IMG/VR virus record: IMGVR_UViG_2541047834_000001
Source of the DNA: a virus
Lineage: Duplodnaviria; Heunggongvirae; Uroviricota; Caudoviricetes
DNA length: 37,741 nucleotides
Strand: one strand, 5' to 3'
Positions 15,484 through 35,622 of this stretch are shown one piece after another. Under the pieces are notes generated by a model. The model saw only the letters and a program-made list of their open reading frames with translations. It was not told the origin of the DNA and did no database searches. Position numbers and translations under genes: made by a program. Every line of letters begins with the position of its first letter. Positions within the stretch are counted from its first letter, which is position 1.

Positions 15484-15681
15484 AATCTCACCTTAAAAAA
15501 ATGCCCGGCGAACCGGGCGAACTGGAAGCAATGAGTTATGCCTTCCGTGGCTGTACGGGTTTACAGCATGAAGTCATCGCAATGGCGTCCTGCTGTAAAA
15601 AGGGCGGTGATAGTCCTTCAAGGGAAACTATCACCGCCAAGCACCTGGAACTTCTGGCATCACGGTCCTTAGGCGTGATTC

Positions 15682-16404: not shown

Positions 16405-18084
16405 ATGGCGGAAACAACTAAAGAGCGATTGAACAAACAGTTCGCACAACTTGAAAGCGAGCGTCAGTCGTTCGAGCCGCACTGGCGCGAGTTGAGTGAT
16501 TACATCAACCCGCGTGGTTCCCGCTTTCTGACTTCTGAGGTCAACCGTAACGATCGACGGAATACACGCATTATTGATTCGACCGGGACTATGGCGGCGC
16601 GCACTCTCGCCAGCGGCATGATGTCAGGCATCACAAGCCCCGCGCGTCCGTGGTTTCGCCTGGCTACGCCAGATCCTGAAATGATGGATTATGGCCCTGT
16701 TAAGTTGTGGCTTGAGGCGGTGCAGAACCGCATGAACGATATGTTCAATAAGTCGAATCTCTATCAGTCGCTGCCGCAGTTATACGGAAGCCTCGGCACA
16801 TACAGCACTGGTGCAATGGCGGTGCTGGAGGATGACGAGGACATCATTCGCACAATGCCATTCCCTATAGGCAGTTACTACCTGGCTAACTCACCTCGTG
16901 GCAGTGTGGACACCTGTTTTCGCAAGTTCTCTATGACTGTTCGTCAGCTTGTTCAGGAGTTCGGGCTAAATAACGTCAGCGAATCCGTAAAAAGCATGTG
17001 GGAAAGCGGCACCTACGAGAAGTGGATTGAAGTGATGCATTCGGTTTACCCGAACATTGACCGCGATACATCGAAGCTGGATAGCAAGAACAAGCCATTC
17101 AAATCGGTTTATTACGAGGTTGGTGGCGATAACGACAAGTTGTTGCGTGAGTCCGGATTCGATGAGTTTCCAATTATGGCTCCGCGCTGGGAAGTTAACG
17201 GCGAAGATGTTTATGGATCATCATGCCCTGGTATGCTGGCGCTTGGACCTGTTAAGGCATTGCAGCTTCTCCAGAAGCGCAAGTCGCAGTTGATTGATAA
17301 AGCCACCAATCCGCCGATGGTTGCTCCGACTTCCCTCAAGAATCAGCGCGCCTCCCTTCTTCCTGGCGACATCACGTATATCGATCAGATTACTGGTCAG
17401 GATGGTTTCAGGCCTGCTTATCTGGTTAACCCCAGTACAGCAGATCTGGTAGCAGACATTCAGGACACCCGCCAAATCATTAACAGCGCCTACTTTGTCG
17501 ATCTGTTCATGATGTTGCAGAACATCAATACCCGCTCGATGCCTGTTGAAGCAGTGATCGAAATGAAAGAAGAAAAGCTTCTGATGTTGGGGCCAGTTCT
17601 GGAGCGTCTGAACGACGAATGTCTTAATCCTCTCATTGACCGCACTTTCTCGATGATGGTGCGTAAAAACATGTTGCCGCCACCGCCTGACGCGATGGAA
17701 GGCATGCCCCTGAAGGTCGAATACATTTCCGTCATGGCTCAGGCGCAGAAGTCTATCGGCCTGTCCAGTCTGGCGTCCACGGTTAACTTCATTGGTCAAC
17801 TTGCGCAAGCGAAACCAGAAGCTCTCGACAAACTCAACGTTGATCAGGCGATCGATGCATTCGCTGATATGTCCGGAGTGTCTCCAACCGTCATTGTTCC
17901 GCAGGAACAGGTTGAGCAGGCTCGCCAGCAACGGGCACAGCAACAACAGCAGCAACAAATGATGGCGATGGGGATGGCGGCGGCACAGGGTGCCAAGACG
18001 CTAAGCGAAGCTAAAACTTCGGAGCCGAGTGTTTTGTCAGCTATGGCGAATGCAGTTAGTGGTCAGGGTGGGCAATCACAATGA
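16405..18084 (+). CDS. Portal (head-tail connector) protein, T7 gp8-like
   Basis: 559 aa; Gln/Ala/Met-rich C-terminus (RQQRAQQQQQQQMMAMGMAAAQGA) like T7-type portals; downstream of terminase. Confidence 0.8.
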   Translation: MAETTKERLNKQFAQLESERQSFEPHWRELSDYINPRGSRFLTSEVNRNDRRNTRIIDSTGTMAARTLASGMMSGITSPARPWFRLATPDPEMMDYGPVKLWLEAVQNRMNDMFNKSNLYQSLPQLYGSLGTYSTGAMAVLEDDEDIIRTMPFPIGSYYLANSPRGSVDTCFRKFSMTVRQLVQEFGLNNVSESVKSMWESGTYEKWIEVMHSVYPNIDRDTSKLDSKNKPFKSVYYEVGGDNDKLLRESGFDEFPIMAPRWEVNGEDVYGSSCPGMLALGPVKALQLLQKRKSQLIDKATNPPMVAPTSLKNQRASLLPGDITYIDQITGQDGFRPAYLVNPSTADLVADIQDTRQIINSAYFVDLFMMLQNINTRSMPVEAVIEMKEEKLLMLGPVLERLNDECLNPLIDRTFSMMVRKNMLPPPPDAMEGMPLKVEYISVMAQAQKSIGLSSLASTVNFIGQLAQAKPEALDKLNVDQAIDAFADMSGVSPTVIVPQEQVEQARQQRAQQQQQQQMMAMGMAAAQGAKTLSEAKTSEPSVLSAMANAVSGQGGQSQ

Positions 18085-18377
18085 CAGATTACGAAGATGA
18101 TCAACTGAAAGAAGAAAACGCCCGTAAGCAATGTGACATGGCACAGCGTGAAATTGATGACATTCGCTTTGTCATGAGCAGTGAACAGGGGCGTCGCGTT
18201 GTCTGGTCGGTGCTGGAGAAAGGCCGTGTGTTTTCCGCTATCTCACCGATGGACGCTATGGCAATGGCATTTAATGAGGGGCAACGCAATCTGGCGCTGG
18301 AACTGTTTCAGCGCGTTATGGCGCATTGCCCTGAACAGTATTTGAAGATGGCCAAAGAGGCCAGTGAACAGGAGTGA
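18081..18377 (+). CDS. Hypothetical protein (98 aa)
   Basis: ATGA-coupled to portal stop. Confidence 0.5.
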   Translation: MTDYEDDQLKEENARKQCDMAQREIDDIRFVMSSEQGRRVVWSVLEKGRVFSAISPMDAMAMAFNEGQRNLALELFQRVMAHCPEQYLKMAKEASEQE

Positions 18378-18379
18378 TC

Positions 18380-19075
18380 ATGAATTTATTTGAGCGTTTG
18401 CTGTATCGCCGTCTTTGCAATGAGCAACCAGTCGATGGTGGAGCAGCTCCGGCTGCGTCAGAACCGTCAGCGCCTGCAGGTGATAACCCTGCTCCAGTTG
18501 GTGATCCATCACAACCGGAAGGTGATAAGCCACAACCTGTTGCTGATGGCGATAAACCTGCTGATGACAAAAAGCCTGAAAACGATAAGCAGGATGAAAA
18601 AAAGGGCGGCGATAAACCAGAGGGTGCGCCTGAGAAGTACGAGTTTCAGGCTGCCGAAGGCGTAGAGCTGGATACAGAAGCGTTGAAGGAATTCGAGCCG
18701 GTGGCGCGAGAACTAAACCTGACCAACGAGCAAGCGCAAAAGCTGGTTGATGCTTATCCGAAGATTCTGGCAGGTGTTCAGCAGCGCCAGGCAGAAGCCT
18801 GGCAGAAAACAACCGAGCAGTGGGCTGCGGATGTAAAAGCTGACAAAGAAATCGGTGGCGACAAGTTGATTTCTAACCTTAGCGCCGCACAGCGTGCGCT
18901 TGACCAGTTCGGGACACCTGAACTCAAAGAATATCTGAACACCACCGGACTGGGTAATCACCCTGATCTGGTCAAAACGTTCGTGAAAATCGGAAAGGCG
19001 ATGTCTGAAGATGGCATGGTCACCGGTGGTAATGAAGGCCAGCGTAGTGCGGCCGAAGTGCTCTATGGCAAATAA
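18380..19075 (+). CDS. Scaffolding protein (acidic, low-complexity)
   Basis: Pro/Asp/Lys/Glu-rich N-terminal half, helical C-terminal half; located between portal and capsid genes; ATG at 18380 with AGGAG RBS. Confidence 0.6.
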   Translation: MNLFERLLYRRLCNEQPVDGGAAPAASEPSAPAGDNPAPVGDPSQPEGDKPQPVADGDKPADDKKPENDKQDEKKGGDKPEGAPEKYEFQAAEGVELDTEALKEFEPVARELNLTNEQAQKLVDAYPKILAGVQQRQAEAWQKTTEQWAADVKADKEIGGDKLISNLSAAQRALDQFGTPELKEYLNTTGLGNHPDLVKTFVKIGKAMSEDGMVTGGNEGQRSAAEVLYGK

Positions 19076-19083
19076 GAGAGGAA

Positions 19084-20076
19084 ATGACAATGGCTGTTAA
19101 AGGCTTAACTGCGCTAACGCTGGCTGACTGGGGTAAGCGCGTCGATCCAAATGGGAAAGTCGATAAGATTATCGAGCTTCTCAATCAAACTAACCCAATT
19201 CTTCAGGATATGCCTTTTGTTGAAGGAAACCTTCCTACCGGACACCGAACCACCATTCGTTCTGGTTTACCTTCTGCTACCTGGCGTTTGCTGAACTATG
19301 GCGTACAGCCAAGCAAATCAACCACGGTGCAGGTCACCGATTCCGTTGGCATGCTGGAAACCTATGCTGAAGTCGATAAGTCACTGGCTGATCTGAACGG
19401 CAATACCGCCGAATTCCGCCTGTCTGAAGACCGCGCATTTATTGAAGCGATGAATCAGCAGATGGCGCAGACGCTGTTTTATGGTGATTCCAGCGTTAAC
19501 CCTCAGCAGTTTATGGGACTGTCCTCCCGCTATTCCAGCCTGTCTGCGGGTAATGCTCAGAACATCATTGATGCTGGTGGCACGGGTACAGATAACACCT
19601 CAATCTGGTTAGTGGTGTGGGGCGAAAACACCGTGCATGGCATCTTCCCGAAAGGGCAGAAGGCTGGCATCCAGATGGAAGATAAAGGCCAGGTGACACT
19701 GGAAGATGCTAATGGCGGCAAGTACGAAGGCTATCGCACCCATTACAAATGGGATAACGGACTTGCTCTGCGTGACTGGCGTTATGTTGTTCGCATTGCA
19801 AACATCGATGTCAGCAATCTTTCAGAACCTTCCTCTGCCGCAAATATTGCGAAGTTGATGGTTAAAGCACTGCATCGCATTCCGAACCGTGGCATGGGGC
19901 GCCCGGTGTTCTACATGAACCGCACTGTAGGCCAGGCTCTTGATTTGCAGTCTCTGGAGAAAACATCTCTGGCGATCAGCGTAAAAGAGACTGAAGGCGA
20001 GTGGTGGACGTCATTCCGTGGTGTACCAATCCGTGAAACTGATGCGCTTCTGGAAACAGAAGCCCGCGTGGTGTAA
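19084..20076 (+). CDS. Major capsid protein
   Basis: 330 aa immediately after scaffold gene, followed downstream by a strong terminator; AGAGAGGA RBS. Confidence 0.75.
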   Translation: MTMAVKGLTALTLADWGKRVDPNGKVDKIIELLNQTNPILQDMPFVEGNLPTGHRTTIRSGLPSATWRLLNYGVQPSKSTTVQVTDSVGMLETYAEVDKSLADLNGNTAEFRLSEDRAFIEAMNQQMAQTLFYGDSSVNPQQFMGLSSRYSSLSAGNAQNIIDAGGTGTDNTSIWLVVWGENTVHGIFPKGQKAGIQMEDKGQVTLEDANGGKYEGYRTHYKWDNGLALRDWRYVVRIANIDVSNLSEPSSAANIAKLMVKALHRIPNRGMGRPVFYMNRTVGQALDLQSLEKTSLAISVKETEGEWWTSFRGVPIRETDALLETEARVV

Positions 20077-20127
20077 CGCCTGTTATTAACCTGTGGGTCG
20101 TAACAGACCCACTAATGGAGAAAGAAG

Positions 20128-20565
20128 ATGATCACCGACAAACTGTTGATGTTCTCCGAAGCACAGGCGGTAACTGATACCGCGGCTTCTACTGACGTAA
20201 TCGATCTCGGTCCAATTGACGGAAAACGTCGTGATATCGGCGTGGGTTACCCGCTTGAGTTTTGGGCGCTGGTTAACACAGCCGCCGCAGCAAGCGGTGA
20301 TGCAACTGTAAACATCCAGTTGCAGACGAGTGAGGATAACAGCTCATGGACCACTATTTATGATAGTGGTGCACTGGCAAAGACCACCCTGACAGCAGGT
20401 AAACGAGTTGTTTCTGCAAAGGTGCCTGCCGGTGTTCAGCGATATCTGCGTGTTAACTACTCCGTCGCAACTGGCCCACTAACGGCTGGCGAATTCACTG
20501 CTGGTATCAGTCTTGATGTTGATGCCAATACGCCGTATCCGATCCGCTCAAAAGTAACTGGTTAA
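20128..20565 (+). CDS. Hypothetical structural protein (145 aa), possible capsid decoration protein
   Basis: GGAGA RBS; Thr/Ala/Gly-rich beta-type composition. Confidence 0.55.
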   Translation: MITDKLLMFSEAQAVTDTAASTDVIDLGPIDGKRRDIGVGYPLEFWALVNTAAAASGDATVNIQLQTSEDNSSWTTIYDSGALAKTTLTAGKRVVSAKVPAGVQRYLRVNYSVATGPLTAGEFTAGISLDVDANTPYPIRSKVTG

Positions 20566-20566
20566 G

Positions 20567-20911
20567 GTGATATCGATGTCAGGTGAGAAACCAAGATACC
20601 GCGTTCTGCGCCTCTCTCATATCCATAACACTCTGTGGCCGGAGGGGGCAGAAATCGAATACGAAGGTGAGCCTGGTAGCGCACTGGAACCTGTTAACGA
20701 TGCAGCCAGACAGGCAAAAGCAAAGGTAGCAGGAAAGGTGACTATGGCAGCAACCAGCACCAAAATCATCAACGATGTGTCAGATGATGGTGAACTGGAT
20801 AAGCTCCGTGAAGAGTACGAATTGCTCTTTAACGAGAAGCCACACCATAACGCCAAAGCCGAAACGCTCCGCGAGAAGATCGCAGATAAGCGTAAAGAAC
20901 TGGGCGTGTAA
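20567..20911 (+). CDS. Hypothetical protein (about 111 aa)
   Basis: Likely ATG at 20576 with AAGGTG RBS; ORF track starts at GTG 20567. Confidence 0.5.
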   Translation: MISMSGEKPRYRVLRLSHIHNTLWPEGAEIEYEGEPGSALEPVNDAARQAKAKVAGKVTMAATSTKIINDVSDDGELDKLREEYELLFNEKPHHNAKAETLREKIADKRKELGV

Positions 20912-20928
20912 GCCTCGCGAATCAGACA

Positions 20929-20949
20929 AGGGGCTTCGGCCCCTTTATT
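20929..20949 (+). terminator. Rho-independent terminator (AGGGGC-TTCG-GCCCCT + TTTATT)
   Basis: GC-rich stem with stable TTCG tetraloop followed by a T-rich tract. Confidence 0.7.
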
Positions 20950-20961
20950 GCAGGAGTGTAT

Positions 20962-21285
20962 ATGGAACTCGTAAACCTCAAAACCGGCACTGACAGCTAC
21001 CAGGATGAGAGCGGAGAAACCAGAACTCGCGATGAATACCCGTGGGGGCTGTGCATCACTCTTAATAACGACACATTGAATAAGCTGAAGGCACAACCTC
21101 AGGGCGTCGGAACAGAAGTGATGATAACTGCAAAGGCTGTTATTCGAGGCCTGTCTGCCAGAGAAACTGACGATGGTGTTAATCGCAGCGCCGATCTGCA
21201 GATCACTGATATGGCGATCGCTCCTGTTTCCGGGGATGTAGAAAAATCAGCGGCTGAAACTCTGTACGGTAACGGAGGTGAGTGA
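20962..21285 (+). CDS. Hypothetical protein (107 aa)
   Basis: ATG at 20962 with CAGGAG RBS. Confidence 0.5.
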   Translation: MELVNLKTGTDSYQDESGETRTRDEYPWGLCITLNNDTLNKLKAQPQGVGTEVMITAKAVIRGLSARETDDGVNRSADLQITDMAIAPVSGDVEKSAAETLYGNGGE

Positions 21286-21890
21286 TGGCCTCTGTAGTAG
21301 AGATCTGTAATCGTGCGCTGTCCAATATTGGCAATAGCCGCAGCATTAACAGCCTGACGGAAGCCAGCAAGGAAGCGGGGGAATGTTCGCTGCACTTTGA
21401 GGCCTGCCGTGATGCTGTGCTTTCTGATTTTGACTGGAACTTTGCTACCAAACGCGTGGCGCTTGCAGATACGAGCAATCCACCGCCTGACTGGGAATAT
21501 GCGTACCAGTACCCGTCCGATTGTCTGCGCATTACTGAAATTATGCTTCCTGGTGTACGCAATCCAACAGCAGCAATGCGCGTTCAGTACGAAGTTGGTG
21601 CAGACACCAACGGAACAGGAAAATTGATCTACACAGACCAGCCGCAGGCATGGCTCAAGTATGTCTCTCGCGTTTCAGATGTAAACATGTTTGATGCCAT
21701 TTTTATGGAGGCGTTGGCCTGGCGTCTTGCGGCAGCCATTAACATGGCGCTGACTGGGAATGCAGACCTCGGTACGTTTGCCCTCAATATGTACAATCGC
21801 GTGATTCTTAGTGCTGGCTCGCATAGCCAGAATGAATCACAGGAACCACAGCCACCGGTTGACGAGTTTACCATTGCGAGGTTGTCCTGA
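21285..21890 (+). CDS. Tail tubular protein A / adaptor-like (T7 gp11 position)
   Basis: About 201 aa, coupled to the 823-aa gene; size and order match gp11-gp12. Confidence 0.5.
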   Translation: MASVVEICNRALSNIGNSRSINSLTEASKEAGECSLHFEACRDAVLSDFDWNFATKRVALADTSNPPPDWEYAYQYPSDCLRITEIMLPGVRNPTAAMRVQYEVGADTNGTGKLIYTDQPQAWLKYVSRVSDVNMFDAIFMEALAWRLAAAINMALTGNADLGTFALNMYNRVILSAGSHSQNESQEPQPPVDEFTIARLS

Positions 21891-24361
21891 TGGCTATCAG
21901 TTGGATCCAGCCCAGCTTTGCCGGTGGTGAGATTGGACCGTCGTTGTACGGTCGTATCGACATGGCGAAGTACCAGGTGGCATTGCGCAAGTGCGATAAC
22001 TTTATCGTGCGGCAGTATGGCGGCGTTGAGAATCGACCTGGTACGCGTTTTGTCGGTGCCGCCAAATACCCAAATCGGAAATGCCGCCTGATACCGTTCC
22101 AGTTCTCGACGGTTCAGACTTATGCTCTGGAGTTCGGACACCAGTACATGCGCGTTATCAAAGATGGTGCGTTGGTGCTGAACAGCAGCAATGTTATTTA
22201 TGAAATTGCCACGCCATATACTGAAGCCGATCTGTTCCGAATTAAATTCACGCAAAGCGCAGACGTGCTTACGCTTGTTCATCCGGCATACCCGCCGAAA
22301 GAGTTGCGTCGCTATGCGCATGACAACTGGCAACTGGTTGATGTGGTAACGAAGAACGGGCCATTTGAAGATATCAATATTGACGAGTCAGTGACGGTTT
22401 ATGCCAGCGCCAGCACCGGGACAATTACGTTAACGGCAAGCGCCTCTATTTTTGGCGCGGAGCAGGTAGGCAAATTGTTCTATCTGGAACAGCCTGCAGT
22501 GGATTCAGTGCCGGTATGGGAAACCAGTAAGAGTACGTCGATTGGCGATATTCGCCGTGCAGACAGTAACTACTATCGCGCCGTTACAGCAGGCAAAACA
22601 GGCACTTTGCGCCCTTCGCATACAGAAGGCACATCATGGGATGGCTGGGGTGGATCGGGTGATGATGATACTGGCATTGAGTGGGAATATCTGCACAGTG
22701 GTTTTGGCATTGCCCGTATCACTGCTGCAAATGGAACTACTGCAACTGCCGAGGTGATTTCCTATATCCCTTCGCAGGTAGTTGGCGAGGATAATGCCAG
22801 CTATAAATGGGCTAAATATGCCTGGAACAGTGTTAATGGTTATCCTGGCACTGTTGTTTATTATCAACAACGTCTTTACTTCGCCGCATCGACTGCGTTC
22901 CCTCAGACTATCTGGGCCAGCCGTACTGGGGATTATAAGGATTTTGGCAAAAGCAATCCTACGCAGGATGACGACAGAATTATCTACACCTATGCCGGGC
23001 GTCAGGTTAATGAGATCCGTCACCTGATTGATGTTGGTTCGCTGGTGGCGCTGACTTCCGGAGGTGAGTACGTCATCACCGGCGACCAGAACAAAGTGTT
23101 AACCCCATCATCATTTGCATTCAGCTCTCAGGGATCAAATGGCTCGAGCAACGTCCCACCAATTGCTGTGGCGAATATTGCTCTGTTCGTCCAGGAGAAA
23201 GGCAGTGTTGTCCGTGATCTGGCCTACTCATTCGATGTTGACGGCTATCAGGGGAACGACCTGACCATCCTTGCCAATCATCTTTTTCAGAAGCACAGCA
23301 TTGTTGACTGGTGCTTCTCTATTGTCCCTTACTCCAGCGCCTTCTGCATTCGTGATGACGGTAAATTACTGGTGATGACCTATTTGCGTGATCAGCAGGT
23401 TTTTGCATGGGCACCACAATCCAGTACCGGAAAATATGAAAGCACATGCAGTATCAGCGAAGGAAATGAAGATGCGGTGTATTTCGTCGTTAACCGAACC
23501 GTTAACGGGCAAACAGTGAGATACATCGAGCGACTGTCCAGCCGTTTATTTACCAGCGATGAAGATGCTTTCTTTGTTGATTCTGGCCTTAGCTATGATG
23601 GAAGAAATACGTCTGACAGAACGATGACCATCACTGGTGGTTCTGGCGAATGGGATTACCACGCGGAATATACAATCAGTATTTCTGGCGGTGCGTACTT
23701 CACCAGTAGTGATGTCGGTGCGCAACTACAGTTCCCTTATACCGGAACTGTTCCTGATACTGGCGATGAAGTGTCAAAAGAATTACGTTGCGACATTATT
23801 TCTGTAACCAGCAACACCGCTGTAGTGGTTCGTGCTAACAGGAACGTCCCGCCATCCCTCAGGAATGTGGCCACCACGAACTGGCAGATGGCGCGCCGGG
23901 CATTTGGCGGCTTGTCTCATCTTGAAGGTCAGACCGTAAACATCCTCTCTGATGCGAACGTGGAACCACAGAAAGTGGTTTCCGGAGGTGCCGTCACGCT
24001 GGAATCTCCGGGGGCTGTAGTGCACATCGGCCTGCCAATAACTGCTGAATTCGAAACACTGGATATCAACATTAACGGACAGGAAACGCTGCTGGACAAA
24101 AAACAGGTGATCCCGTCCGTTACTCTGGTTGTGAATGCCAGTCGCGGCATCTGGGCGACTACGCCCGGCGGTAAATGGTACGAATATCCACAGCGTGAAT
24201 TCGAGTTCTACGATGATCCTGTTGATGATGCTACCGGAAAAGTAGAAGTGAAACTGGACAGTAACTGGGGCAAAAACGGGCGTGTAAAAATCCGTCAGCT
24301 TGACCCGTTGCCGCTGTCTGTTCTTGCCGTTATTCCTCGCCTTACTGTTGGGGGATTCTGA
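21890..24361 (+). CDS. Tail tubular protein B / nozzle-like (T7 gp12 position)
   Basis: 823 aa; size and synteny. Confidence 0.6.
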   Translation: MAISWIQPSFAGGEIGPSLYGRIDMAKYQVALRKCDNFIVRQYGGVENRPGTRFVGAAKYPNRKCRLIPFQFSTVQTYALEFGHQYMRVIKDGALVLNSSNVIYEIATPYTEADLFRIKFTQSADVLTLVHPAYPPKELRRYAHDNWQLVDVVTKNGPFEDINIDESVTVYASASTGTITLTASASIFGAEQVGKLFYLEQPAVDSVPVWETSKSTSIGDIRRADSNYYRAVTAGKTGTLRPSHTEGTSWDGWGGSGDDDTGIEWEYLHSGFGIARITAANGTTATAEVISYIPSQVVGEDNASYKWAKYAWNSVNGYPGTVVYYQQRLYFAASTAFPQTIWASRTGDYKDFGKSNPTQDDDRIIYTYAGRQVNEIRHLIDVGSLVALTSGGEYVITGDQNKVLTPSSFAFSSQGSNGSSNVPPIAVANIALFVQEKGSVVRDLAYSFDVDGYQGNDLTILANHLFQKHSIVDWCFSIVPYSSAFCIRDDGKLLVMTYLRDQQVFAWAPQSSTGKYESTCSISEGNEDAVYFVVNRTVNGQTVRYIERLSSRLFTSDEDAFFVDSGLSYDGRNTSDRTMTITGGSGEWDYHAEYTISISGGAYFTSSDVGAQLQFPYTGTVPDTGDEVSKELRCDIISVTSNTAVVVRANRNVPPSLRNVATTNWQMARRAFGGLSHLEGQTVNILSDANVEPQKVVSGGAVTLESPGAVVHIGLPITAEFETLDININGQETLLDKKQVIPSVTLVVNASRGIWATTPGGKWYEYPQREFEFYDDPVDDATGKVEVKLDSNWGKNGRVKIRQLDPLPLSVLAVIPRLTVGGF

Positions 24362-24825
24362 TGATTGATGTTCAAATTATTCCCGCTACCGAAGAGCATC
24401 TTCAGATGATTTTGCCGGATGTTCGTCAGGCTGATATTGACGAACTGTATGCGGTATCGCTGATGACTACCGAAGATGCGCTGCGCGTTGGTCTTCGCAC
24501 TGCGACTATGGCCTGGTCAGGGTTCGCGAACGGAGAACTGGTAACCATGTTTGGTGTATCTCCGGCGTCAATGATCGGTGGCAATGGTACGCCCTGGCTG
24601 GTAGGAACCAGCCGTATTGAAAAATATCAGAAGACATTTCTGCGCCACTGCCGCCCTGTATTGCAGCAGATGCTGGCAGTTTATCCGCGCCTGGAAAACT
24701 ACGTCGACGAGCGAAACCATGTTGCCAAAGCATGGCTGCACTGGCTTGGATTCAGGCTTGAAGAAGCCGCGCCTTATGGTGCTCTTGGTCTTAATTTCCA
24801 CAGATTTCACATGGAGAGAAAATAA
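24361..24825 (+). CDS. Internal virion protein A-like (gp13 position), hypothetical
   Basis: 154 aa; ATGA-coupled. Confidence 0.5.
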   Translation: MIDVQIIPATEEHLQMILPDVRQADIDELYAVSLMTTEDALRVGLRTATMAWSGFANGELVTMFGVSPASMIGGNGTPWLVGTSRIEKYQKTFLRHCRPVLQQMLAVYPRLENYVDERNHVAKAWLHWLGFRLEEAAPYGALGLNFHRFHMERK

Positions 24826-25370
24826 TGTGCGATCCGGTTATTGCTGGTGGCGCAATGCTCGCCATGAGTGGCATTCAGGCATACACCCAGTACCAACAGG
24901 GAAAGTATGCCTCGAAGGTTGCAGAAGCGAACGCAGATATAGCCACAGCTCAGGCAAATGATGCAATAAACAGAGGTAACGCTGAAGCTGAGCAACGACG
25001 CAGAGAGACCCGACAGCGGCTTGGTACACAGGCGGCGACAATGGGGGCTACCGGCGCTGATTTATCTACAGGTAACGCGCTGGATATATTTGGCGACACT
25101 GCCCAGTTTGGCGCTCTTGATTCGCTGACGACGGTGAATAACGCGCAACGCGAGGCTTACGGTTATCAGGTTCAGGCTGCCAACTATAAAGCAGAAGCCA
25201 GTTCAGCCCGTAAACAGGGGAATGTGGGAGCAGCAACAACATTGCTCACTGCGCCTCTGAAGGCATACGGTGCGTACCAGATGTTTGGTGGGACGTGGAG
25301 TCCGTTTACTCAAAGCACCCCTGCGCCAATCGGGGCAGCAGCAGGAACCAGATTACCCGGAGGATTATAA
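24825..25370 (+). CDS. Internal virion protein B-like (gp14 position), hypothetical
   Basis: 181 aa; Ala/Gln-rich. Confidence 0.5.
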   Translation: MCDPVIAGGAMLAMSGIQAYTQYQQGKYASKVAEANADIATAQANDAINRGNAEAEQRRRETRQRLGTQAATMGATGADLSTGNALDIFGDTAQFGALDSLTTVNNAQREAYGYQVQAANYKAEASSARKQGNVGAATTLLTAPLKAYGAYQMFGGTWSPFTQSTPAPIGAAAGTRLPGGL

Positions 25371-27883: not shown

Positions 27884-29682
27884 GTTACTTTGGCCTTAAT
27901 CCAGTAAACCAGAATCAGCAGCTTGACGAAGCAGCATCAAATCCAGCTGGCTTTAACAGCGATGTTGGTTTTTTCGACAATGCTGTAGGAGCGGCATTGT
28001 CTGGTTTGTACTCCGGGCTGGTGGCAAAGCCAGATCAGTTGCTATGGGCAGGGATGGATAAAATCGTATCCCCGATTGCTCAGTTTGTTAACGAAAACAC
28101 CTCGATCAATGACACTTCAGTTTCATACATTGCTGAGCAGAGAAAACTAGCAGAGCAGCAGGTTAAGCGGCTGACGCCTGATGCCGCGACAACCGGAACC
28201 GCCGGGCAGGTCCTTTATGGGTTGTTCGATATGGGCGGGCAGGCTGTTGTCGGTACAACGCTCGGTGGTCCGGTCGGAGGTGCTGCGGCGGTAACTTCTC
28301 TACAGGGTTTTTCTGAGTTTGAACGGCTGACAGCACAGGGTGTTGATTTCAGGACGGCGCAGGAAGCGGGATTAGTGCAGGGTATTACTGCTGGTGCCGG
28401 AACACTGATCCCTATGAGCCTCGGGTTACGTGCTGGTGGTGCACTGGCGGAAGGTGTGGCGGCTCAGCTTGCGCGGACGGGTGAAAGTTCAGTGCGACGC
28501 GCCGCAGCAACAGCAGTACGTGCAACGCCAGATATTGCCTATGCCGCAGGTACAAATATTGCGTTCGGTATGGCACAGCGTGGGCTTACTGCAAAAACGC
28601 TTCGTGATGGTGGCTATAGCGAAATGGCTAACCAGTATGATGTGTTGGATCGACAGGCAATTGCTATTGATGCTGTTCTTGGGGTGGCGTTTGGTGGTGT
28701 CGGCAGATTTATTAACTCTCGCGGCGAGTCTACAAGCGCACCAAATTTTTCACCAGTTGATGTTGATGCTGCACTGGCGGCGAATGCCGCTCATCATGCT
28801 GAAATTGATATTGCGCCCGGCGTGCCGATCAACGTGCTTTCGCGCAATTCTCACATTCAGGCTCTGCGAAAAGCTATGTCTGATGTTAGCCAGGGGAGAC
28901 CTGTAGACGTTGCCAGCATTGTTGAGTCTGCATCTTTCAGTGAAATTCCTGGGCGCAAGAGTCTGCTGTCTCAGGCAGTTAATGAGGCTCTGTCATCTGT
29001 AGATGATGGAGTAACGGCGCGCGCTATAGAAAATCGGTTGCTTGAAGAACAGGCCGCGCAGCTTTTGCCGCGTGGCGATAGACAGGTTTACCAGTCTGAA
29101 ATAGCTAATAGCCAACGAATTATTGAAAATCTCACTGAACAGCGCGCACAAATTCTTGCAGAAGAGCCAACCGGTAGCGGTAAATCTTTGTCTCGTGCTC
29201 GATCAGATAAACAGGTCAGACTTCGCGATATTGACCAACGAATCCGGCAGGCACAAGAACGCCTGGAATTTTCCCGTAACGCGTTGGCACCGCATGAGCC
29301 TGGCGGTCAGTTTTTTGAAGCTCGAGCAGAACTGGCACGGAGACAGCAGGCTGAAAGTGAACTTAATGCTCAGGCTGTTTCATTCTATAAAACAGCAGAG
29401 GTCAGGACGCCAGGCGAAGTAGCTCCTTTTGAGCCTGATAAAATATTGCAACAGGCAGAACAAAAAATGATGGCGGATCAGGCAGGAGATATTGATCTGC
29501 GCATAGCTGAAGACTCGCTGCTTGAATCACCTGACATGATAATCACCGTGCTGGATGATGATGGTAATCCACAATCGCGCAGCGCGCGTGAAGTACTGGA
29601 TGAAGCGAACAGGGAAAGTGAGCAGGCAATACAGGATTCCAGCCTGTTTGATGTCGCTGTGGCGTGTTTCTTGAGAGGTTAA
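27880..29682 (+). CDS. Internal virion / ejection protein (N-terminal part of gp16-like function)
   Basis: 600 aa; ATGA-coupled; Ala/Gly-rich N-terminus and coiled-coil C-terminus. Confidence 0.65.
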   Translation: MSYFGLNPVNQNQQLDEAASNPAGFNSDVGFFDNAVGAALSGLYSGLVAKPDQLLWAGMDKIVSPIAQFVNENTSINDTSVSYIAEQRKLAEQQVKRLTPDAATTGTAGQVLYGLFDMGGQAVVGTTLGGPVGGAAAVTSLQGFSEFERLTAQGVDFRTAQEAGLVQGITAGAGTLIPMSLGLRAGGALAEGVAAQLARTGESSVRRAAATAVRATPDIAYAAGTNIAFGMAQRGLTAKTLRDGGYSEMANQYDVLDRQAIAIDAVLGVAFGGVGRFINSRGESTSAPNFSPVDVDAALAANAAHHAEIDIAPGVPINVLSRNSHIQALRKAMSDVSQGRPVDVASIVESASFSEIPGRKSLLSQAVNEALSSVDDGVTARAIENRLLEEQAAQLLPRGDRQVYQSEIANSQRIIENLTEQRAQILAEEPTGSGKSLSRARSDKQVRLRDIDQRIRQAQERLEFSRNALAPHEPGGQFFEARAELARRQQAESELNAQAVSFYKTAEVRTPGEVAPFEPDKILQQAEQKMMADQAGDIDLRIAEDSLLESPDMIITVLDDDGNPQSRSAREVLDEANRESEQAIQDSSLFDVAVACFLRG

Positions 29683-29687
29683 ATTAA

Positions 29688-32162
29688 ATGAGACAGGAAT
29701 GTATACAAGCGGTCCAGCAGGCGGCGCAGCGCACGTTAACGGCGCGAGAAATACAGAACATTGAAGACCGCATTTATCGAAATATGCGCTCCATTGCTCG
29801 TGATGACCCGATGTCGTGGAGACAACTTTCCGAATCAGAGCGGCTATATCGTGCAGCACAATTGGCATCTGAAGAATTACAGCGAGAAGCGGCATTAAAG
29901 AAACGTCGTGTGGCCCTCACTATAGCCGCACGTCAGAGATTGGATAAATTTATCAATAGCTATCAAGGGGCTGATGGGAAACTTGGCGCTCTTAACCGTA
30001 CTATTGCTTTTAATGCAGACGGTAAATCGAATTTCCTCTCTGTTGAATCCAGAACAAAAGCCACTCGTGATTATGCATTGAGTCAATTGCAGGAGGCATT
30101 CGAAGCAGTTGATCCTCGCTTTTTTGGTCTGTTTGAAGATGAAGCGGGCGTACGTGACCTGGTATATGAAATGCGAGGGCAAAATACTGGCAATGCTAAA
30201 GCAAGAAAAGGTGCTAAGGCGTGGAGAGAAGTGACAGAGCTACTGCGCCGCCGGTTTAATGATGCTGGTGGGGACATTGGCTATCTCGAAAACTGGGGGC
30301 TCCCTCAACATCATTCTATGGAAAAGGTTGGGGCGGTATCAAAGGATAAGTGGGTTAGCGATGTTATAGGTAAGCTGGATCGCAAATATTATACCCGAGC
30401 CGATGGACAACTGATGAACGATGCCGAGTTGTCTGCATTTCTTGGAGAGGCTTATAACACGATCGCTACTGGTGGGCTGAATAAGCTTACTGATACCGGA
30501 ATGCGAATTTCCGGCGCACGTGCTAACCGGGGTAATGCATCACGACAGATACATTTCAAAGATGCAGATTCCTATCTGCAATATCAGCAACTTTATGGCG
30601 ATCGCTCTCTATGGGAAATCATGGTCGGTCACCTGGAAGGTATCAGTAAAGATATTGCACTGGTGGAAACATATGGCCCAAACCCCGATCATGTTTTCCG
30701 CTCTCTTCTTGATCAGGTGAAGGCAGAAACGGCAACAGCTAACCCGAGTAAAACCGGTAAAGTCGAGCGGCTGGCGAACAACACAGAGAATCTGTACAAC
30801 TTTATTTCCGGAAAGACACAGCCTGTAGCGAATCCGCACATCGCGCGATGGTCTGACAATATTCGCAACTGGCTGGTTGCCAGCAGACTCGGATCCGCGT
30901 TGCTGTCATCGTTCTCTGATCTTGGAACCATGTATCTGTCTGCGAAGGTTACCAACCTTCCAATGAACCAGTTATTCCGCAACCAGCTTGAAGCTATGGA
31001 CCCAACGAACCGTACAGAACTTGCGCGGGCGCGCCGCGCTGGTCTGGCGATGGAATCTCTACTTGGCAGCGTTAACCGCTGGGCGATGGATAATATGGGG
31101 CCGTCAGTGTCTCGTTGGGCGGCAACGGCGGTAATGCGTGCCAGTGGGCTTACAGCATGGTCAGATGCGCACAAGCGCGCCTATGGCGTAACCATGATGG
31201 GAAGCCTGGGAGAAGTAGTGTCACGAACACCAGACCTTCGTAGCCTCGATGACTCTGATTTTCGTATCCTGAAAAGCAAAGGGATTACTGACACAGACTG
31301 GAGCGTATGGAAGCTGGCGCAACAGGAGGACTGGGGGAACGGTAATAATACGATGCTGACACCGGAAAGCATTATGCGTATCCCTGATTCAGCAGTTAAA
31401 CATCTTGGTGAGCCTGAACGCGTGAAATTTGAGGCAATGCGTAAACTGCTCGGTGCCGTAACTGAAGAAGTTGATATGGCTGTTATTACACCGGGAGCAC
31501 GTGAGCAACTGATAACCGGTTCTGGTATTCAGCGTGGAACATGGAAAGGTGAATTAACGAGAAGTGTTTTCCTGTTTAAATCGTTCCCTATCTCGGTTGT
31601 TATGCGTCACTGGTCACGCGCTATGGGTATGCCGTCTGCTGGTGGGCGTGCGGCATATATTGCGACGTTTATTGCCAGTACGACCATTCTTGGCGCTTTG
31701 TCGCAACAACTTAACGACCTTGCGTCTGGTCGTAATCCTCGAGAGATGACAGGAGAAGATGCCGCAAAATTCTGGCTTGGTGCTCTACTGAAAGGTGGTG
31801 GTCTTGGCCTTTATGGTGACTTTTTATTGTCAGATCACACTAGGTACGGAAGCGGCGCGCTGGCGTCGATGCTTGGCCCGGTAGCTGGTCTGGTTGATGA
31901 CGTAGTGAAGATTGCTCAGGGCATACCGTTAAATGCTGTGGAAGGGAAGAGTGAGCAGACTGGTGGTGATCTGGTGAAGCTGGGGAAAGGTTTGATGCCA
32001 GGTGCGAATCTCTGGTACTTGAAGGCGGCTCTCGATCACATGATCTTTAATCAGATGCAGGAGTATTTTTCACCAGGCTATTTGCGTAAAATGGAGCAAC
32101 GTTCGAAGAAAGAGTTTAACCAGACATACTGGTGGCGACCTCAGGATGTCACTCCGCAATAA
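29688..32162 (+). CDS. Internal virion / ejection protein (gp16-like, large)
   Basis: 824 aa; synteny. Confidence 0.65.
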   Translation: MRQECIQAVQQAAQRTLTAREIQNIEDRIYRNMRSIARDDPMSWRQLSESERLYRAAQLASEELQREAALKKRRVALTIAARQRLDKFINSYQGADGKLGALNRTIAFNADGKSNFLSVESRTKATRDYALSQLQEAFEAVDPRFFGLFEDEAGVRDLVYEMRGQNTGNAKARKGAKAWREVTELLRRRFNDAGGDIGYLENWGLPQHHSMEKVGAVSKDKWVSDVIGKLDRKYYTRADGQLMNDAELSAFLGEAYNTIATGGLNKLTDTGMRISGARANRGNASRQIHFKDADSYLQYQQLYGDRSLWEIMVGHLEGISKDIALVETYGPNPDHVFRSLLDQVKAETATANPSKTGKVERLANNTENLYNFISGKTQPVANPHIARWSDNIRNWLVASRLGSALLSSFSDLGTMYLSAKVTNLPMNQLFRNQLEAMDPTNRTELARARRAGLAMESLLGSVNRWAMDNMGPSVSRWAATAVMRASGLTAWSDAHKRAYGVTMMGSLGEVVSRTPDLRSLDDSDFRILKSKGITDTDWSVWKLAQQEDWGNGNNTMLTPESIMRIPDSAVKHLGEPERVKFEAMRKLLGAVTEEVDMAVITPGAREQLITGSGIQRGTWKGELTRSVFLFKSFPISVVMRHWSRAMGMPSAGGRAAYIATFIASTTILGALSQQLNDLASGRNPREMTGEDAAKFWLGALLKGGGLGLYGDFLLSDHTRYGSGALASMLGPVAGLVDDVVKIAQGIPLNAVEGKSEQTGGDLVKLGKGLMPGANLWYLKAALDHMIFNQMQEYFSPGYLRKMEQRSKKEFNQTYWWRPQDVTPQ

Positions 32163-32171
32163 GGAAGTGTT

Positions 32172-32345
32172 GTGTTTTTAATTATTTTGAGTGTGATAAT
32201 TTCTGGTGGATTGTTATTTATTGACCGCTACAAATATTTTCTTAACCCTCAGACTCAAGCTATTTGCTGGTTCATCTTTGTTGTGCAGGGAGTAGTTCTT
32301 GTTGCAAGCCTTATTGAGGGGAGGCCTCTTATTTTTACTGGGTAA
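32172..32345 (+). CDS. Small hydrophobic membrane protein (57 aa), AT-rich moron
   Basis: GTG start 4 nt after AAGGAAG; VFLIILSVIISGGLLFIDRYKYFLNPQTQAICWFIFVVQGVVLVASLIEGRPLIFTG; about 30% GC; not in ORF track (size cutoff). Confidence 0.4.
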   Translation: MFLIILSVIISGGLLFIDRYKYFLNPQTQAICWFIFVVQGVVLVASLIEGRPLIFTG

Positions 32346-32357
32346 ATAGGTGACTAC

Positions 32358-32654
32358 ATGCAAGCTATAGGATTCATTGTTTATATCGTCGTTGGTCTTT
32401 TTCAGTTGGCAGCAATTATGGCTGGGCTTGAATCATGGTGGGGATTGCACTGGATAATTGCAGCCCCCATTGCTTTCATCGTGAGCTATATTCCATTTGT
32501 TGGAGCGATTGTTGGTATGGTTGGCGCTGTGGATGTATGGCGGTGGGAGTGGTGGCAGGCTGGCCTTCTCTTCTTTGGTGGGATCATCTTTGCTATTGTC
32601 TGCGGTGGAATGTCATCATTTTTCGAATGGCTATCATTCAGAAAAGGGACGTGA
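32358..32654 (+). CDS. Trp-rich integral membrane protein (98 aa, about 3 TM)
   Basis: Hydrophobic segments; stop embedded in GTGACATGTCAC palindrome; followed by terminator. Confidence 0.55.
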   Translation: MQAIGFIVYIVVGLFQLAAIMAGLESWWGLHWIIAAPIAFIVSYIPFVGAIVGMVGAVDVWRWEWWQAGLLFFGGIIFAIVCGGMSSFFEWLSFRKGT

Positions 32655-32662
32655 CATGTCAC
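32651..32662. promoter_or_regulatory. Perfect 12-bp palindrome GTGACATGTCAC (copy 3)
   Basis: Overlaps stop codon of membrane-protein gene; terminator hairpin starts 2 nt downstream. Confidence 0.45.
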
Positions 32663-32663
32663 A

Positions 32664-32688
32664 GGCCGCTTTCGCGGCCTTTAAATTT
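32664..32688 (+). terminator. Terminator hairpin GGCCGC-TTTC-GCGGCC + TTTAAATTT
   Basis: Perfect 6-bp GC stem with T-rich tail; between convergent genes. Confidence 0.55.
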
Positions 32689-32962
32689 ACCGGGTTTGTT
32701 TTCGTAATTGTTCGGCACAATAGTCGAGATGTGTTTGCAGATCCTGCATAGACATCTGTGAGCTGGTGACATAGTTAATCAGTGCAGTCAGTTCGGCAAG
32801 TGGGCCATCGACATTAAATCCATCCTTATCGAGATCCCGGAGTAATTTCATCAAGTGCGATCCCTCCACCAGTGACCTGACGCCTCCCGGCGTGTGAATC
32901 CTTTCGGTAAATCCGTCTTCCAGTGGATAGTGATACTGCTGCATCTTATCTTCTCCATGCAA
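32687..32962 (-). CDS. Hypothetical soluble protein (91 aa), reverse-oriented moron with own promoter region
   Basis: Only minus-strand gene in the structural module; upstream intergenic 32963-33139 contains an ATTACC-N5-GGTAAT site. Confidence 0.55.
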   Translation of the reverse strand: MHGEDKMQQYHYPLEDGFTERIHTPGGVRSLVEGSHLMKLLRDLDKDGFNVDGPLAELTALINYVTSSQMSMQDLQTHLDYCAEQLRKQTR

Positions 32963-33020
32963 TAACTGTATATTTATACAGTATCAAATAATTTGTTTGC
33001 TATCCAGCACGTTTTGCAAA

Positions 33021-33035
33021 TTACCCGAAAGGTAA
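33021..33035. promoter_or_regulatory. Operator-like palindrome ATTACC-CGAAA-GGTAAT between moron gene and tail fibre gene
   Basis: Perfect half-sites; followed at 33067 by TATGTGGTTTTTAA. Confidence 0.5.
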
Positions 33036-33139
33036 TATCTATTCGTATTCACAGTCTTTCTATCCATATGTGGTTTTTAAGGTAATAGAATAACCAGATA
33101 TGCGGCGCAACGGGTGCTGCGACTATCTGGAGATTTAAC

Positions 33140-35329
33140 ATGACGGTCTCAACCGAAGTTGACCACAACGAATACACCGGTAACGGCGTTACGACATCAT
33201 TTCCGTATACCTTCCGTATTTTCAAAAAAACCGACCTGGTTGTTCAGGTGTCTGACCTGAACGGGAACGTAACAGAATTGGTTCTGGATACCGGTTATAA
33301 GGTAACTGGAGCGGGCACTTATAGTGGCGGTGAAGTGGTTCTCCCGTCGCCGCTTGCTGCTGGATGGCGAATTACGATAGAGCGTGTGCTTGATGTGGTG
33401 CAGGAGACTGATCTTCGCAATCAGGGAAAATTTTTCCCCGAAGTTCATGAGGATGCATTTGACTACCTGACGATGCTGATCCAGCGATGTTTCGGGTGGT
33501 TCAGACGTGCATTGATGAAACCATCTTTGCTTGCAAAATATTACGATGCAAAGCAAAACAGAATTTCTAACCTTGCAGATCCATCACTTGAGCAGGACGC
33601 TGTAAATAATCGCTCAATGCGTAATTATGTCGATGCTGCAATCGCCGGGGTTGTTGGTGGTTTTGGTTGGTTTATACCGTCAGGAAGCGGGGCAAGACAA
33701 CGAACATTTCAAAGCAAAATGAGGGATATAATTTCTCCTTGTGATTACGAAGATAATATTTTTATGATTAAGGAGTTGATATCCAAAGGCAAAAATGCCG
33801 CTGTTTTTAACTCATATTATACTTTTGTTATTACTGTTGGCGAATGGGGTGATTACCCTACACTCAAAGATGCAATCATTGCAGCCCAGTCAATGAGACC
33901 TATGTGGGATGGTGGTAATGCTTTCTGCGAAATAAGAATTAAGACCGGGCATATTATCAACTATCAAATTGAATTCAGTTCAGGTGTTGATTTGTCTTGG
34001 ATTAAAATAACATCAGAAGACTCAGTGGTTTTCTCTGACACTCGTTTGTTTACTAAAATCGTTAGAACGTATTACGAATACAAGTATTTATTTTACATTT
34101 GCGATGCAGCAAAAAGTCCTGTATTTGCTATTCAGATCGAAGAAAATAGAGATGATAGCGATGTTTGTGCATTTATTGTAACTCAAAAAGCTGAACTTAA
34201 TTTCTATCCGTATTCAGGTGCTCGAAAGTTCTACGTTGGAATTCATGGTAGTTTTGGTGCAAAAATTAGTGCATATCATACCGGATGTGCTCCTGATGAG
34301 GAAAGTGTTGCTGCATATATGCCAGAAGGGTATTACGTATGTGATTTTTCTTATAGCAGATACTCTTCCCTGCAACTGGTAAATAATGTCAAGGCATCAA
34401 TGCCTGTAAGCAAGTTTGAACGGTGCACAGAGAGTACGGTTGCGTCAGTTAATTGTATTTATAATGTTAAAGCAGATTTTCAGGGGTCAAGTGCAAGCTA
34501 TTGTTATATAGGATGGAATGTAAGAGATGGTTCAAATGTTAATATACGCGACCATAAAACTATACATTGCTCATATCGTGGATTAACCTGCATTCATACA
34601 GCATATGTTGATGCAAGACGACATGACGTTGAAGAAAGTGATGCAGAAACAAGTGGTAAAGTCCTTGAACCAAATATTGAAAAAGGTTTTTATGGATGTG
34701 CACTTGGTGTGCGTATTGATGGTGCGGGTTGCGTTGATGTTGCTGGTAATGATATGCGCAATTGTGGAACAGCCGTTAATGCAGACACTGGTGCTGTTAT
34801 TTCAGGAAAGGCTGTAGATATCTCAGGGGCTGAGCTGGGATTTGATTGCCATGCAGGAGCATCTGTTAATTTTCCAAGGCTATGGGGTACAGATATAAAA
34901 AAATTAATGCACCTCCAAGATGGTGTAAGGTTTAACTCTAATATTTGTCATGTATTTGGTGCAAATCCCACAAAAGATATTAGATGGATTGATGTAGAGA
35001 GATCTGAAGCTTCTTTTATGAATGCAACGCTGGATGCAGATTCAGGATTTATTGCCGACTGTGGTAGTAGGATAACCATTGAAGGAAGTAAAGTTAAAAA
35101 CCAAACAATAAGAAGTTTTTTTGGATCATATGTGGCTATAAATAATACTGTTGCTGACAGAACTTATTCAGATATAGCCGATGTTCCGCAGTTGACTATT
35201 AGTGGAGGATCTTTTATTTCTGCTACAGGATATTCTAATTCTGACTCCAGCCCTCTGAGGTTGAGCACAACACGAAATACACTTGGCGTTGGAGGAGCTA
35301 TATTTTCAACCAATGGGGAAGTTTCATGA
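33140..35329 (+). CDS. Tail fibre / tailspike protein (conserved N-terminal adaptor, variable AT-rich distal domain)
   Basis: 729 aa; N-terminus (NEYTGNGVTTSFPYTF...NRISNLADPSLEQDAVNNRSMRNY) resembles podovirus tail-fibre anchors; distal portion about 35% GC. Confidence 0.75.
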   Translation: MTVSTEVDHNEYTGNGVTTSFPYTFRIFKKTDLVVQVSDLNGNVTELVLDTGYKVTGAGTYSGGEVVLPSPLAAGWRITIERVLDVVQETDLRNQGKFFPEVHEDAFDYLTMLIQRCFGWFRRALMKPSLLAKYYDAKQNRISNLADPSLEQDAVNNRSMRNYVDAAIAGVVGGFGWFIPSGSGARQRTFQSKMRDIISPCDYEDNIFMIKELISKGKNAAVFNSYYTFVITVGEWGDYPTLKDAIIAAQSMRPMWDGGNAFCEIRIKTGHIINYQIEFSSGVDLSWIKITSEDSVVFSDTRLFTKIVRTYYEYKYLFYICDAAKSPVFAIQIEENRDDSDVCAFIVTQKAELNFYPYSGARKFYVGIHGSFGAKISAYHTGCAPDEESVAAYMPEGYYVCDFSYSRYSSLQLVNNVKASMPVSKFERCTESTVASVNCIYNVKADFQGSSASYCYIGWNVRDGSNVNIRDHKTIHCSYRGLTCIHTAYVDARRHDVEESDAETSGKVLEPNIEKGFYGCALGVRIDGAGCVDVAGNDMRNCGTAVNADTGAVISGKAVDISGAELGFDCHAGASVNFPRLWGTDIKKLMHLQDGVRFNSNICHVFGANPTKDIRWIDVERSEASFMNATLDADSGFIADCGSRITIEGSKVKNQTIRSFFGSYVAINNTVADRTYSDIADVPQLTISGGSFISATGYSNSDSSPLRLSTTRNTLGVGGAIFSTNGEVS

Positions 35330-35622
35330 TTAAGAGCATTGATGTCACTCCATTTCTTCACTCGCTTTGCGCTTTTGCGGCTCAGGTACTGGTTGGTATT
35401 TTTACCGGAAACTGGGCTTACGGTGCGATAGCCGGTTGTACGTTCTTCATTGCGCGTGAACACACCCAGGCAGAATATCGCTGGATAGAAAAGTTTGGGA
35501 AAGGGAAACGTATCAACATGCCGTGGTGGGGAGGTTTTGATCCACGCGTGTGGGATGTGGGAAGTCTGTTGGATTTTGCTGTTCCTGTTGTTTTTTGTTT
35601 TTGTGTTTATTTCTCTATTTGA
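35326..35622 (+). CDS. Small membrane protein (98 aa) coupled to tail fibre gene
   Basis: ATGA overlap with tail fibre stop; two hydrophobic segments. Confidence 0.5.
   Translation: MIKSIDVTPFLHSLCAFAAQVLVGIFTGNWAYGAIAGCTFFIAREHTQAEYRWIEKFGKGKRINMPWWGGFDPRVWDVGSLLDFAVPVVFCFCVYFSI

Follow-up and report, generated by a model that had tools for sequence, protein, structure and literature searches.

The late operon of a guaA-integrated Uetakevirus prophage and its partial likeness to the T7 morphogenesis module

The stretch of DNA analysed here, IMG/VR record IMGVR_UViG_2541047834_000001 (Caudoviricetes), is 37,741 nucleotides long and is referred to as the window. Its positions 16405–35329 hold a run of virion genes that a previous sequence-only reading had interpreted as a T7-like morphogenesis module carried by a lambdoid temperate backbone. 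All open reading frames (ORFs) named in that reading were found in the ORF map, on the plus strand and with the coordinates and sizes it had assigned to them. They encode, in this order, a portal protein of 559 amino acids (aa) (16405–18084), a putative scaffolding protein (233 aa, 18374–19075), the capsid protein (330 aa, 19084–20076), a predicted tail adaptor (202 or 201 aa, starting at 21282 or 21285 and ending at 21890), the tail nozzle (823 aa, 21890–24361), a gp13-like protein (154 aa, 24361–24825), a gp14-like protein (181 aa, 24825–25370), an internal virion protein (25370–27883; 837 aa from the ATG, 862 aa from the first GTG), two proteins of 600 aa (27880–29682) and 824 aa (29688–32162), and a tailspike of 729 aa (33140–35329). 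Four small genes without a counterpart in T7 had been passed over, at 18081–18377 (98 aa), 20128–20565 (145 aa), 20567–20911 (114 aa) and 20956–21285 (109 aa), as had an insert of approximately 1 kb (32163–33139), with genes for membrane proteins and a regulator, that separates the tailspike gene from the last core gene. The terminase genes located upstream (12872–15018), also missing from that list, are part of the same late operon.

The first 17 bp of the window, ATTGAGTGGGAATGATT, constitute the attL core and the left boundary of the prophage, at the 3' end of guaA (positions 1–17), and are exactly repeated as the attR core at 37725–37741. The same 17 bp have been published as the attP/attB core of phage vB_EcoP_ZX5 (hereafter ZX5), a core that sits at the 3' end of guaA (PMC9782041). 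In the E. coli genomes matched, guaA adjoins the integrase gene found here, and the integrase region was detected in 554 of 5426 complete E. coli genomes (~10%). The presence of the core at both ends, together with the adjacency of guaA, shows that the window corresponds to exactly one prophage, complete and exactly bounded, whose insertion behind guaA most probably took place in an Escherichia host.

The structural region showed 98% nucleotide identity to phage HEMP4 with 100% coverage, the same identity to phages phiv142-3, PAS61 and phiV10 with coverages of 86–91%, and again 98% to ZX5 over 83% of the query. Identity to Enterobacter phage Tyrion was 81.5%, and to Salmonella phage epsilon15 about 75% along the capsid-to-core segment (query positions 4870–10491, 30% of the query). 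The early half of the window was 97–98% identical to Uetakeviruses, with 59–82% covered. Gene by gene, the order agrees with that in the curated records of phiV10 and epsilon15, and the genus given in the records of phiV10, phiv142-3, epsilon15, ZX5, HEMP4 and PAS61 is Uetakevirus. The following features of this genus were found in the window: co-linearity and nucleotide identity, a gp7-type capsid, a gp10-type staple protein, the tailspike anchor and the guaA attachment core. It is thus almost certain that positions 16405–35329 are the late operon, with the virion genes, of an intact prophage that belongs to the epsilon15/phiV10 group of Uetakevirus and is integrated at guaA.

HEMP4, phiv142-3, PAS61, ZX5 and phiV10 share with the window the gene order, the guaA attachment core, the lysis cassette and a tRNA-Arg, with positions 16405–32162 at 98% identity. 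HEMP4 also shares the tailspike (99%), whereas the receptor-binding domains of the tailspikes of phiV10 (O157-specific), ZX5 and phiv142-3 are unlike that of the window. Epsilon15, the type Uetakevirus, has one-to-one counterparts of the genes gp4 to gp17 and of the N-terminus of gp20, and the same Pfam GP7 and Gp10-like families, but infects another host (Salmonella), carries another tailspike, has genes for O-antigen conversion (gp21/22) and is without the tRNA.

The same comparisons bear on whether the element could be a defective or cryptic remnant with non-functional structural genes. Nothing specific was found in favour of this explanation; both attachment cores are present, all structural ORFs are full-length when compared with those of phiV10 and epsilon15, and phages that were isolated as viable particles share 98% identity with the block, so a cryptic remnant is highly unlikely. 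Particles of ZX5 have a short tail of 15 nm by electron microscopy (EM) (PMC9782041). Cryo-EM structures of epsilon15 exist, covering the capsid proteins gp7 and gp10, the portal, the core and the tail hub. The statement of the sequence-only reading that such hybrids are less well characterised than lambda- or P22-type prophages was therefore wrong, since genomes, EM and cryo-EM are available for Uetakevirus and its integrase region is frequent in E. coli. The module was correctly recognised in outline but was already known, and belongs to an ordinary member of a well-studied genus. As a discovery it has small value, since this is a textbook-level group carried by about one in ten complete E. 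coli genomes.

The portal matched Pfam PF12236, the T7 gp8 family, with an E value of 8.5e-188, the solved portal of Carin-1 (8ck0_A, E 5.9e-179) and the portal of a T7-like cyanophage (E 5.6e-5), and hhalign aligned it to the T7-group gp8 profile with a probability of 91% over 490 columns. The Gln-rich C-terminus that had been pointed out is present, with the protein ending in ...QARQQRAQQQQQQQMMAMGMAAAQG..., and T7 gp8 has a comparable tail rich in Gln, Met and Ala (...EEQKQQKMAQQSMQMGM...). By its Pfam family the portal belongs to the T7 gp8 group and not to the P22 gp1 type.

No Pfam family was obtained for the adaptor (21285–21890). Among PDB sequences, its sequence profile retrieved the "connector" of Carin-1 (E 3.4e-48) and, with an E value of 9.2e-11, the adaptor of LME-1. 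T7 gp11 was missed, and a comparison of structures was therefore needed. The AlphaFold (AF2) model was of good quality (predicted local distance difference test, pLDDT, 89; predicted template modelling score, pTM, 0.82), and all 24 Foldseek matches in the PDB with E values of 1e-3 or lower were podovirus tail adaptors. These included Carin-1 (8ck1_E, template modelling score, TM, 0.84), LME-1 (9efk), the tubular protein A (TTPA) of KP32 and T7 gp11 (7box, 7ey7 and 6r21; E 7e-6 to 2e-4, TM 0.54–0.60), the best T7 match being 7box_M, along the full length (E 6.8e-6, TM 0.57–0.60). The E value against the P22 gp4 complex was 0.8, in comparison with 1e-5 to 1e-16 for gp11-type adaptors. The model thus predicts that the 201-aa protein is a tail adaptor with the T7 gp11 fold.

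The nozzle matched its solved counterparts in Carin-1 ("Tail Nozzle", 8ck1_A, E 2.2e-217) and LME-1 (9efk_M, E 1.5e-15). With T7 gp12 the hhalign signal was weak (5% probability), although co-linear and fourth among the 180 pairs compared. The portal, adaptor, nozzle and fibre N-domain of LME-1 and Carin-1 closely resemble those of T7 without sequence similarity, and the gene order is shared (PMC12407071); the T7-likeness of the nozzle would thus be supported indirectly, through its solved homologues in these two phages. In Carin-1, from Cobetia marina (PDB 8ck0/8ck1), and LME-1, from Legionella (PDB 9efk), the portal, adaptor, nozzle and tailspike N-domain of the window have clear homologues at the sequence level. 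LME-1 is temperate, as is the phage of the window. The two phages differ from it in their distant hosts and in other receptor-binding domains, and the identity of the adaptor in the structural alignments was 32% for Carin-1 and 19% for LME-1.

The 154-aa protein (24361–24825) was aligned by hhalign to T7 gp13 with a probability of 97.5% (E 5e-12, 131 columns), and its match to Pfam Phage_T7_Gp13 was below threshold (E 0.088). It is a T7 gp13-like internal virion or assembly protein. The 181-aa protein matched PF24072 (T7_gp14) with an E value of 2.5e-7 and 31.2 bits, over a cut-off of 27, and reached 63% with T7 gp14 in hhalign. In the 837-aa protein, residues ~248–394 form a lytic transglycosylase or lysozyme-like, peptidoglycan-cleaving domain, which matched residues 3–143 of Gp29 in PDB 9vvp_L (E 4.1e-38), the N-terminal domain of a phage protein of 1295 aa, and endolysin 7q47 (E 3.4e-17). 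The protein was also assigned to phrog_992 (head protein) and phrog_7182 (tail injection transglycosylase). The T7 record likewise describes gp16 as an internal virion protein that has an endolysin domain; the lytic domain lies in the middle of the 837-aa protein, whereas in T7 it stands at the N-terminus of the 1318-aa gp16. The 600-aa protein is the homologue of epsilon15 gp16 (phrog_1145; PhiV10p19), and the 824-aa protein that of epsilon15 gp17 (phrog_684, virion structural protein), with no match for the latter in the PDB. Homologue searches with the 233-aa and 824-aa proteins listed only sequences with at least 80% identity and added little depth.

To what degree the module is T7-like was determined from the complete set of comparisons. 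With thin T7 profiles, the first hhalign matrix revealed no counterparts other than gp8 and gp13; with an enlarged T7 profile set gp14 was added, and gp9, gp10, gp11, gp15 and gp16 continued undetected. In the final matrix of 15 x 12 profiles, the best five of the 180 pairs (gp13, gp8, gp14, gp12 and gp17) were all syntenic, which would not be expected by chance. The likeness to T7 thus comprises the order portal, scaffold, capsid, adaptor, nozzle, gp13, gp14, large internal proteins and fibre, and the portal tail rich in Gln, Met and Ala, with homology supported for gp8, gp11, gp13 and gp14; for gp12 and the gp17 N-domain the support is weak.

Several of the comparisons were negative. Comparison of all 17 late proteins with T7 gp6.7 to gp19 by phmmer and blastp gave nothing significant. 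Pfam, PDB and hhalign searches gave no link to T7 gp15 or gp16 for the 600-aa and 824-aa proteins, nor for the 837-aa protein. The presumed role of the 600- and 824-aa products as ejection proteins rests on their position and on homologues labelled as virion structural or internal proteins. NCBIfam gave no family for any of the structural proteins. The BLASTP check that the sequence-only reading had proposed was thus negative throughout, and its profile and structure counterparts were positive for gp8, gp11, gp13 and gp14 but not for gp10, gp15 and gp16. What stands of a T7-like module is the portal, the adaptor, gp13, gp14, the gene order and, indirectly, the nozzle; the capsid, the terminase and the fibre do not follow it.

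Since homology to T7 is detectable only by profile or structure, the split is ancient, and the relationship is best described as an ancient shared architecture and not as a recent graft. A new chimera, formed by recent hybridization between a true T7-like phage (Autographiviridae) and a lambdoid prophage, would account for the order mirroring T7 gp8–gp17 and for the T7-type portal, adaptor, gp13-like and gp14-like proteins. It is, however, extremely improbable: pairwise similarity to T7 proteins is missing, the capsid and terminase are not of T7 type, and the element is co-linear with long-known Uetakeviruses, which its early half matches at 97–98% identity with 59–82% coverage; the 98% identity to the phiV10 group in effect refutes it. 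No phage RNA polymerase was found among the 64 annotated features of phiV10, which is co-linear with the window, and all ORFs of the window outside the structural block are of at most 491 aa, while the T7 RNA polymerase gene has 2652 bp (~880 codons). In Autographiviridae the terminase genes gp18/gp19 are located downstream of the fibre, in contrast to their upstream position here, and the window carries an integrase and a repressor. Further differences from T7 are another capsid family and topology, additional decoration genes, a tailspike in place of the fibre, an unrelated terminase upstream and the temperate lifestyle.

The capsid protein matched PF20911 (epsilon15 gp7/BPP-1 Bbp17) over residues 21–330 with an E value of 5.8e-150, and the hhalign probability with T7 gp10 was 0.1%, so the T7 gp10-type capsid implied by the previous interpretation was not borne out. 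Capsids of the epsilon15 gp7/BPP-1 type have a rearranged version of the HK97 fold, the BPP topology (PMC3863775). The genes around it are all on the plus strand. The product of 18081–18377 is a small Bbp19-like protein (PF25181, E 2.9e-17) without a T7 counterpart; that of 20128–20565 is Bbp16-like, of the BPP-1 cement protein family (PF21190, E 1.7e-46); that of 20567–20911 is a 114-aa homologue of epsilon15 gp9 (phrog_590; PhiV10p12); and that of 20956–21285 is a capsid decoration (staple) protein of the epsilon15 gp10 family (PF21628, E 1.2e-51). A Bbp16-type protein and a gp10-type staple protein are thus encoded together by one phage, and T7 has neither of them. The small terminase subunit (12872–13546, plus strand) belongs to Terminase_2 (E 1.4e-29; phrog_51), and the large subunit (13543–15018, plus strand; phrog_2, E 8.5e-53) is the orthologue of PhiV10p02 and epsilon15 gp2, with an hhalign probability of 4.4% against T7 gp19. 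The terminase located upstream of the module appears to be unrelated to T7 gp18/19.

The 233-aa product of 18374–19075 is uniformly labelled protease, peptidase or endoprotease in databases, in podoviruses of the epsilon15, BPP-1, AF and Carin types, while no family was matched in Pfam or NCBIfam. The family is large (13,756 clusters at 50% identity, E ≤ 0.001). Across 40 diverse homologues, residues 1–83 are hypervariable, with an abundance of Pro, Ala, Asp and Lys, and residues 84–233 are conserved and predicted as all-helical, with Y89, D157, G161, G162, L184 and P197 invariant and a GNHPE motif nearly so; no conserved Ser, no conserved Cys and no HExxH motif were present among them. The AF2 model showed a disordered N-terminus followed only by helices, and its Foldseek matches were helical and not significant, so they were uninformative and were not used for or against a protease fold. 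Against T7 gp9 the hhalign value was 0.3%, and a literature search yielded nothing on the choice between scaffold and protease for this phage group.

An HK97-fold capsid without a delta domain needs a separate scaffold. The capsid protein of the window lacks this domain, as its Pfam coverage begins at residue 21; a separate scaffold is then needed, and the 233-aa gene occupies the scaffold position between portal and capsid. On balance it is judged somewhat more plausible that this family, with a disordered hypervariable N-terminus and a helical C-domain bearing GNHPE, supplies the scaffold that is otherwise missing from the lineage than that it is a protease, which gives preference to the scaffold proposed by the sequence-only reading. 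The low confidence of the model (pLDDT 48) and the uniform database label count against this assignment, which we infer from the position and features described. The protease label would then be a probable annotation error.

The product that had been called a tail fibre is instead a tailspike with a swapped receptor-binding domain. Over residues 1–203 it shared 92% identity with phiv142-3; the value for epsilon15 and phiV10 was about 70% (67–70% for residues 1–165). Residues 185–729 were 89% identical to the tailspike of JEP4, a P22-like Lederbergvirus, and positions 33965–35585 of the window, comprising the receptor-binding part and a small ORF behind it, showed 98% DNA identity to JEP4. The N-domain matched Dpo31 of Carin-1 (E 3.4e-31); with the T7 fibre N-terminal domain the Pfam match was below threshold (E 0.062), and the hhalign pair was co-linear and ranked fifth of 180. 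The G+C content of the receptor-binding cassette is ~40%, against ~50% for the rest of the prophage. The protein is thus a chimeric tailspike of O-antigen type, with a Uetakevirus anchor (residues 1 to ~203) and a receptor-binding part shared with JEP4, in agreement with the modular receptor-binding proteins published for Uetakevirus and Lederbergvirus (PMC10408124). The receptor-binding part and the small ORF would represent a host-range cassette exchanged horizontally. This receptor-binding domain is also unusually rich in Cys.

This identity to JEP4 (~98% nucleotide and 89–91% protein) could also be read as a sign of a P22-like (Lederbergvirus) morphogenesis module, and the annotation notes of TerS/TerL in phiV10 and epsilon15 cite P1 PacB and Sf6 gp2. 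The chance of this is, nevertheless, close to nil: the portal is of the T7 gp8 family, the adaptor does not significantly match P22 gp4, the capsid is of the epsilon15 gp7 family, and the sharing is limited to the C-terminal part of the tailspike and the small ORF. JEP4 has that ORF with the same overlapping-stop arrangement, but its tailspike carries a P22-type head-binding N-domain in place of the Uetakevirus type found here, and its remaining virion modules are unrelated. The assignment of the operon to Uetakevirus is thus retained.

The small ORF (35326–35622, plus strand; phrog_1443) overlaps the stop codon of the tailspike, and its translation is a hydrophobic membrane protein of 98 aa. 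Copies with 86–91% identity stand behind the tailspikes of phiv142-3 (86%) and JEP4 (91%). Its slot is that of the O-acetyltransferase gene oac, which follows the tailspike in phiV10 and is absent from this place in the window, and of the O-antigen conversion genes in epsilon15. A fixed association of this ORF with one receptor-binding domain was considered and rejected, as the 86%-identical copy follows the different tailspike of phiv142-3. Present in both Uetakevirus and P22-like phages, the ORF might, as a weaker reading, encode a lysogenic-conversion or exclusion factor.

In the insert ahead of the tailspike gene, two very hydrophobic ORFs at the end of the structural operon (32172–32345 and 32358–32654, plus strand; 57 and 98 aa by translation; phrog_3075, with PhiV10p21 as the analogue of the first) stand where phiV10 has its Bro-N antirepressor region. 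At ~32661–32685 a GC-rich hairpin, with runs of T and A on its two sides, looks like a bidirectional terminator. It is followed on the minus strand by a gene (32687–32962) for a small protein similar to epsilon15 gp19 (phrog_450), with weak similarity to anti-repressors (phrog_1760, E 4e-7).

Between the terminase and the portal genes, inside the late region, ARAGORN and Rfam (RF00005, 73.3 bits) identified a tRNA-Arg with anticodon UCU on the minus strand (15682–15758). It is also present, unannotated, in phiV10 and absent in epsilon15. A plus-strand ORF (15501–15752; phrog_4647) overlaps it, and its homologue is annotated as the coding sequence PhiV10p04; given the overlap and the unannotated tRNA in phiV10, this family of coding sequences may be spurious. 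AGA represents 10.8% of the Arg codons of the prophage and 11 of the 24 in the receptor-binding part of the tailspike, a usage that could possibly explain the retention of this tRNA.

The domain search of the early region identified a tyrosine integrase, an MT-A70 methylase, an AlpA-type regulator and a helix-turn-helix repressor. The recombination genes encode a RecT family protein (E 2e-31) and a PDDEXK nuclease of DUF3799 (RecE-type), and the replication genes a lambda P-family protein (Phage_lambda_P, E 1.5e-56) and an initiator with DnaT and HTH_36 domains that is not of the lambda O family. Segments of this region are common to 602 phage records, many of them Stx-converting, with 465 of the 602 best places at 90–99% identity. 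The early region, which had been described as lambdoid, thus retains this description in part: it is temperate and mosaic in the lambdoid manner, with an integrase, a repressor and lambda P, but its recombination genes are of RecT/RecE type and not Bet/exo, and its initiator is of DnaT/HTH_36 type and not O.

On the basis of what is known from T7 and epsilon15, the virion would be built and would work as follows. The capsid would assemble on the portal, enclosing the 233-aa scaffolding-like protein, and the upstream TerS/TerL would package the DNA. The portal would then be closed by a short tail of 12 adaptors, six nozzle subunits and six tailspike trimers. At infection the tailspike would bind and probably cleave the O-antigen, the internal proteins of 181, 837, 600 and 824 aa would leave the head and form a channel across the envelope, and the 837-aa protein would cut the peptidoglycan. 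The host range would be set by the receptor-binding cassette exchanged horizontally with P22-like phages.

These results separate the T7-type parts of the module (portal, adaptor, gp13, gp14 and, indirectly, the nozzle) from those that are not of T7 type (capsid, decoration proteins, terminase and tailspike). The chimeric tailspike would constitute a further case in which a receptor-binding cassette has passed between Uetakevirus and phages of the P22 type, a point that bears on the prediction of the O-antigen specificity of prophages.

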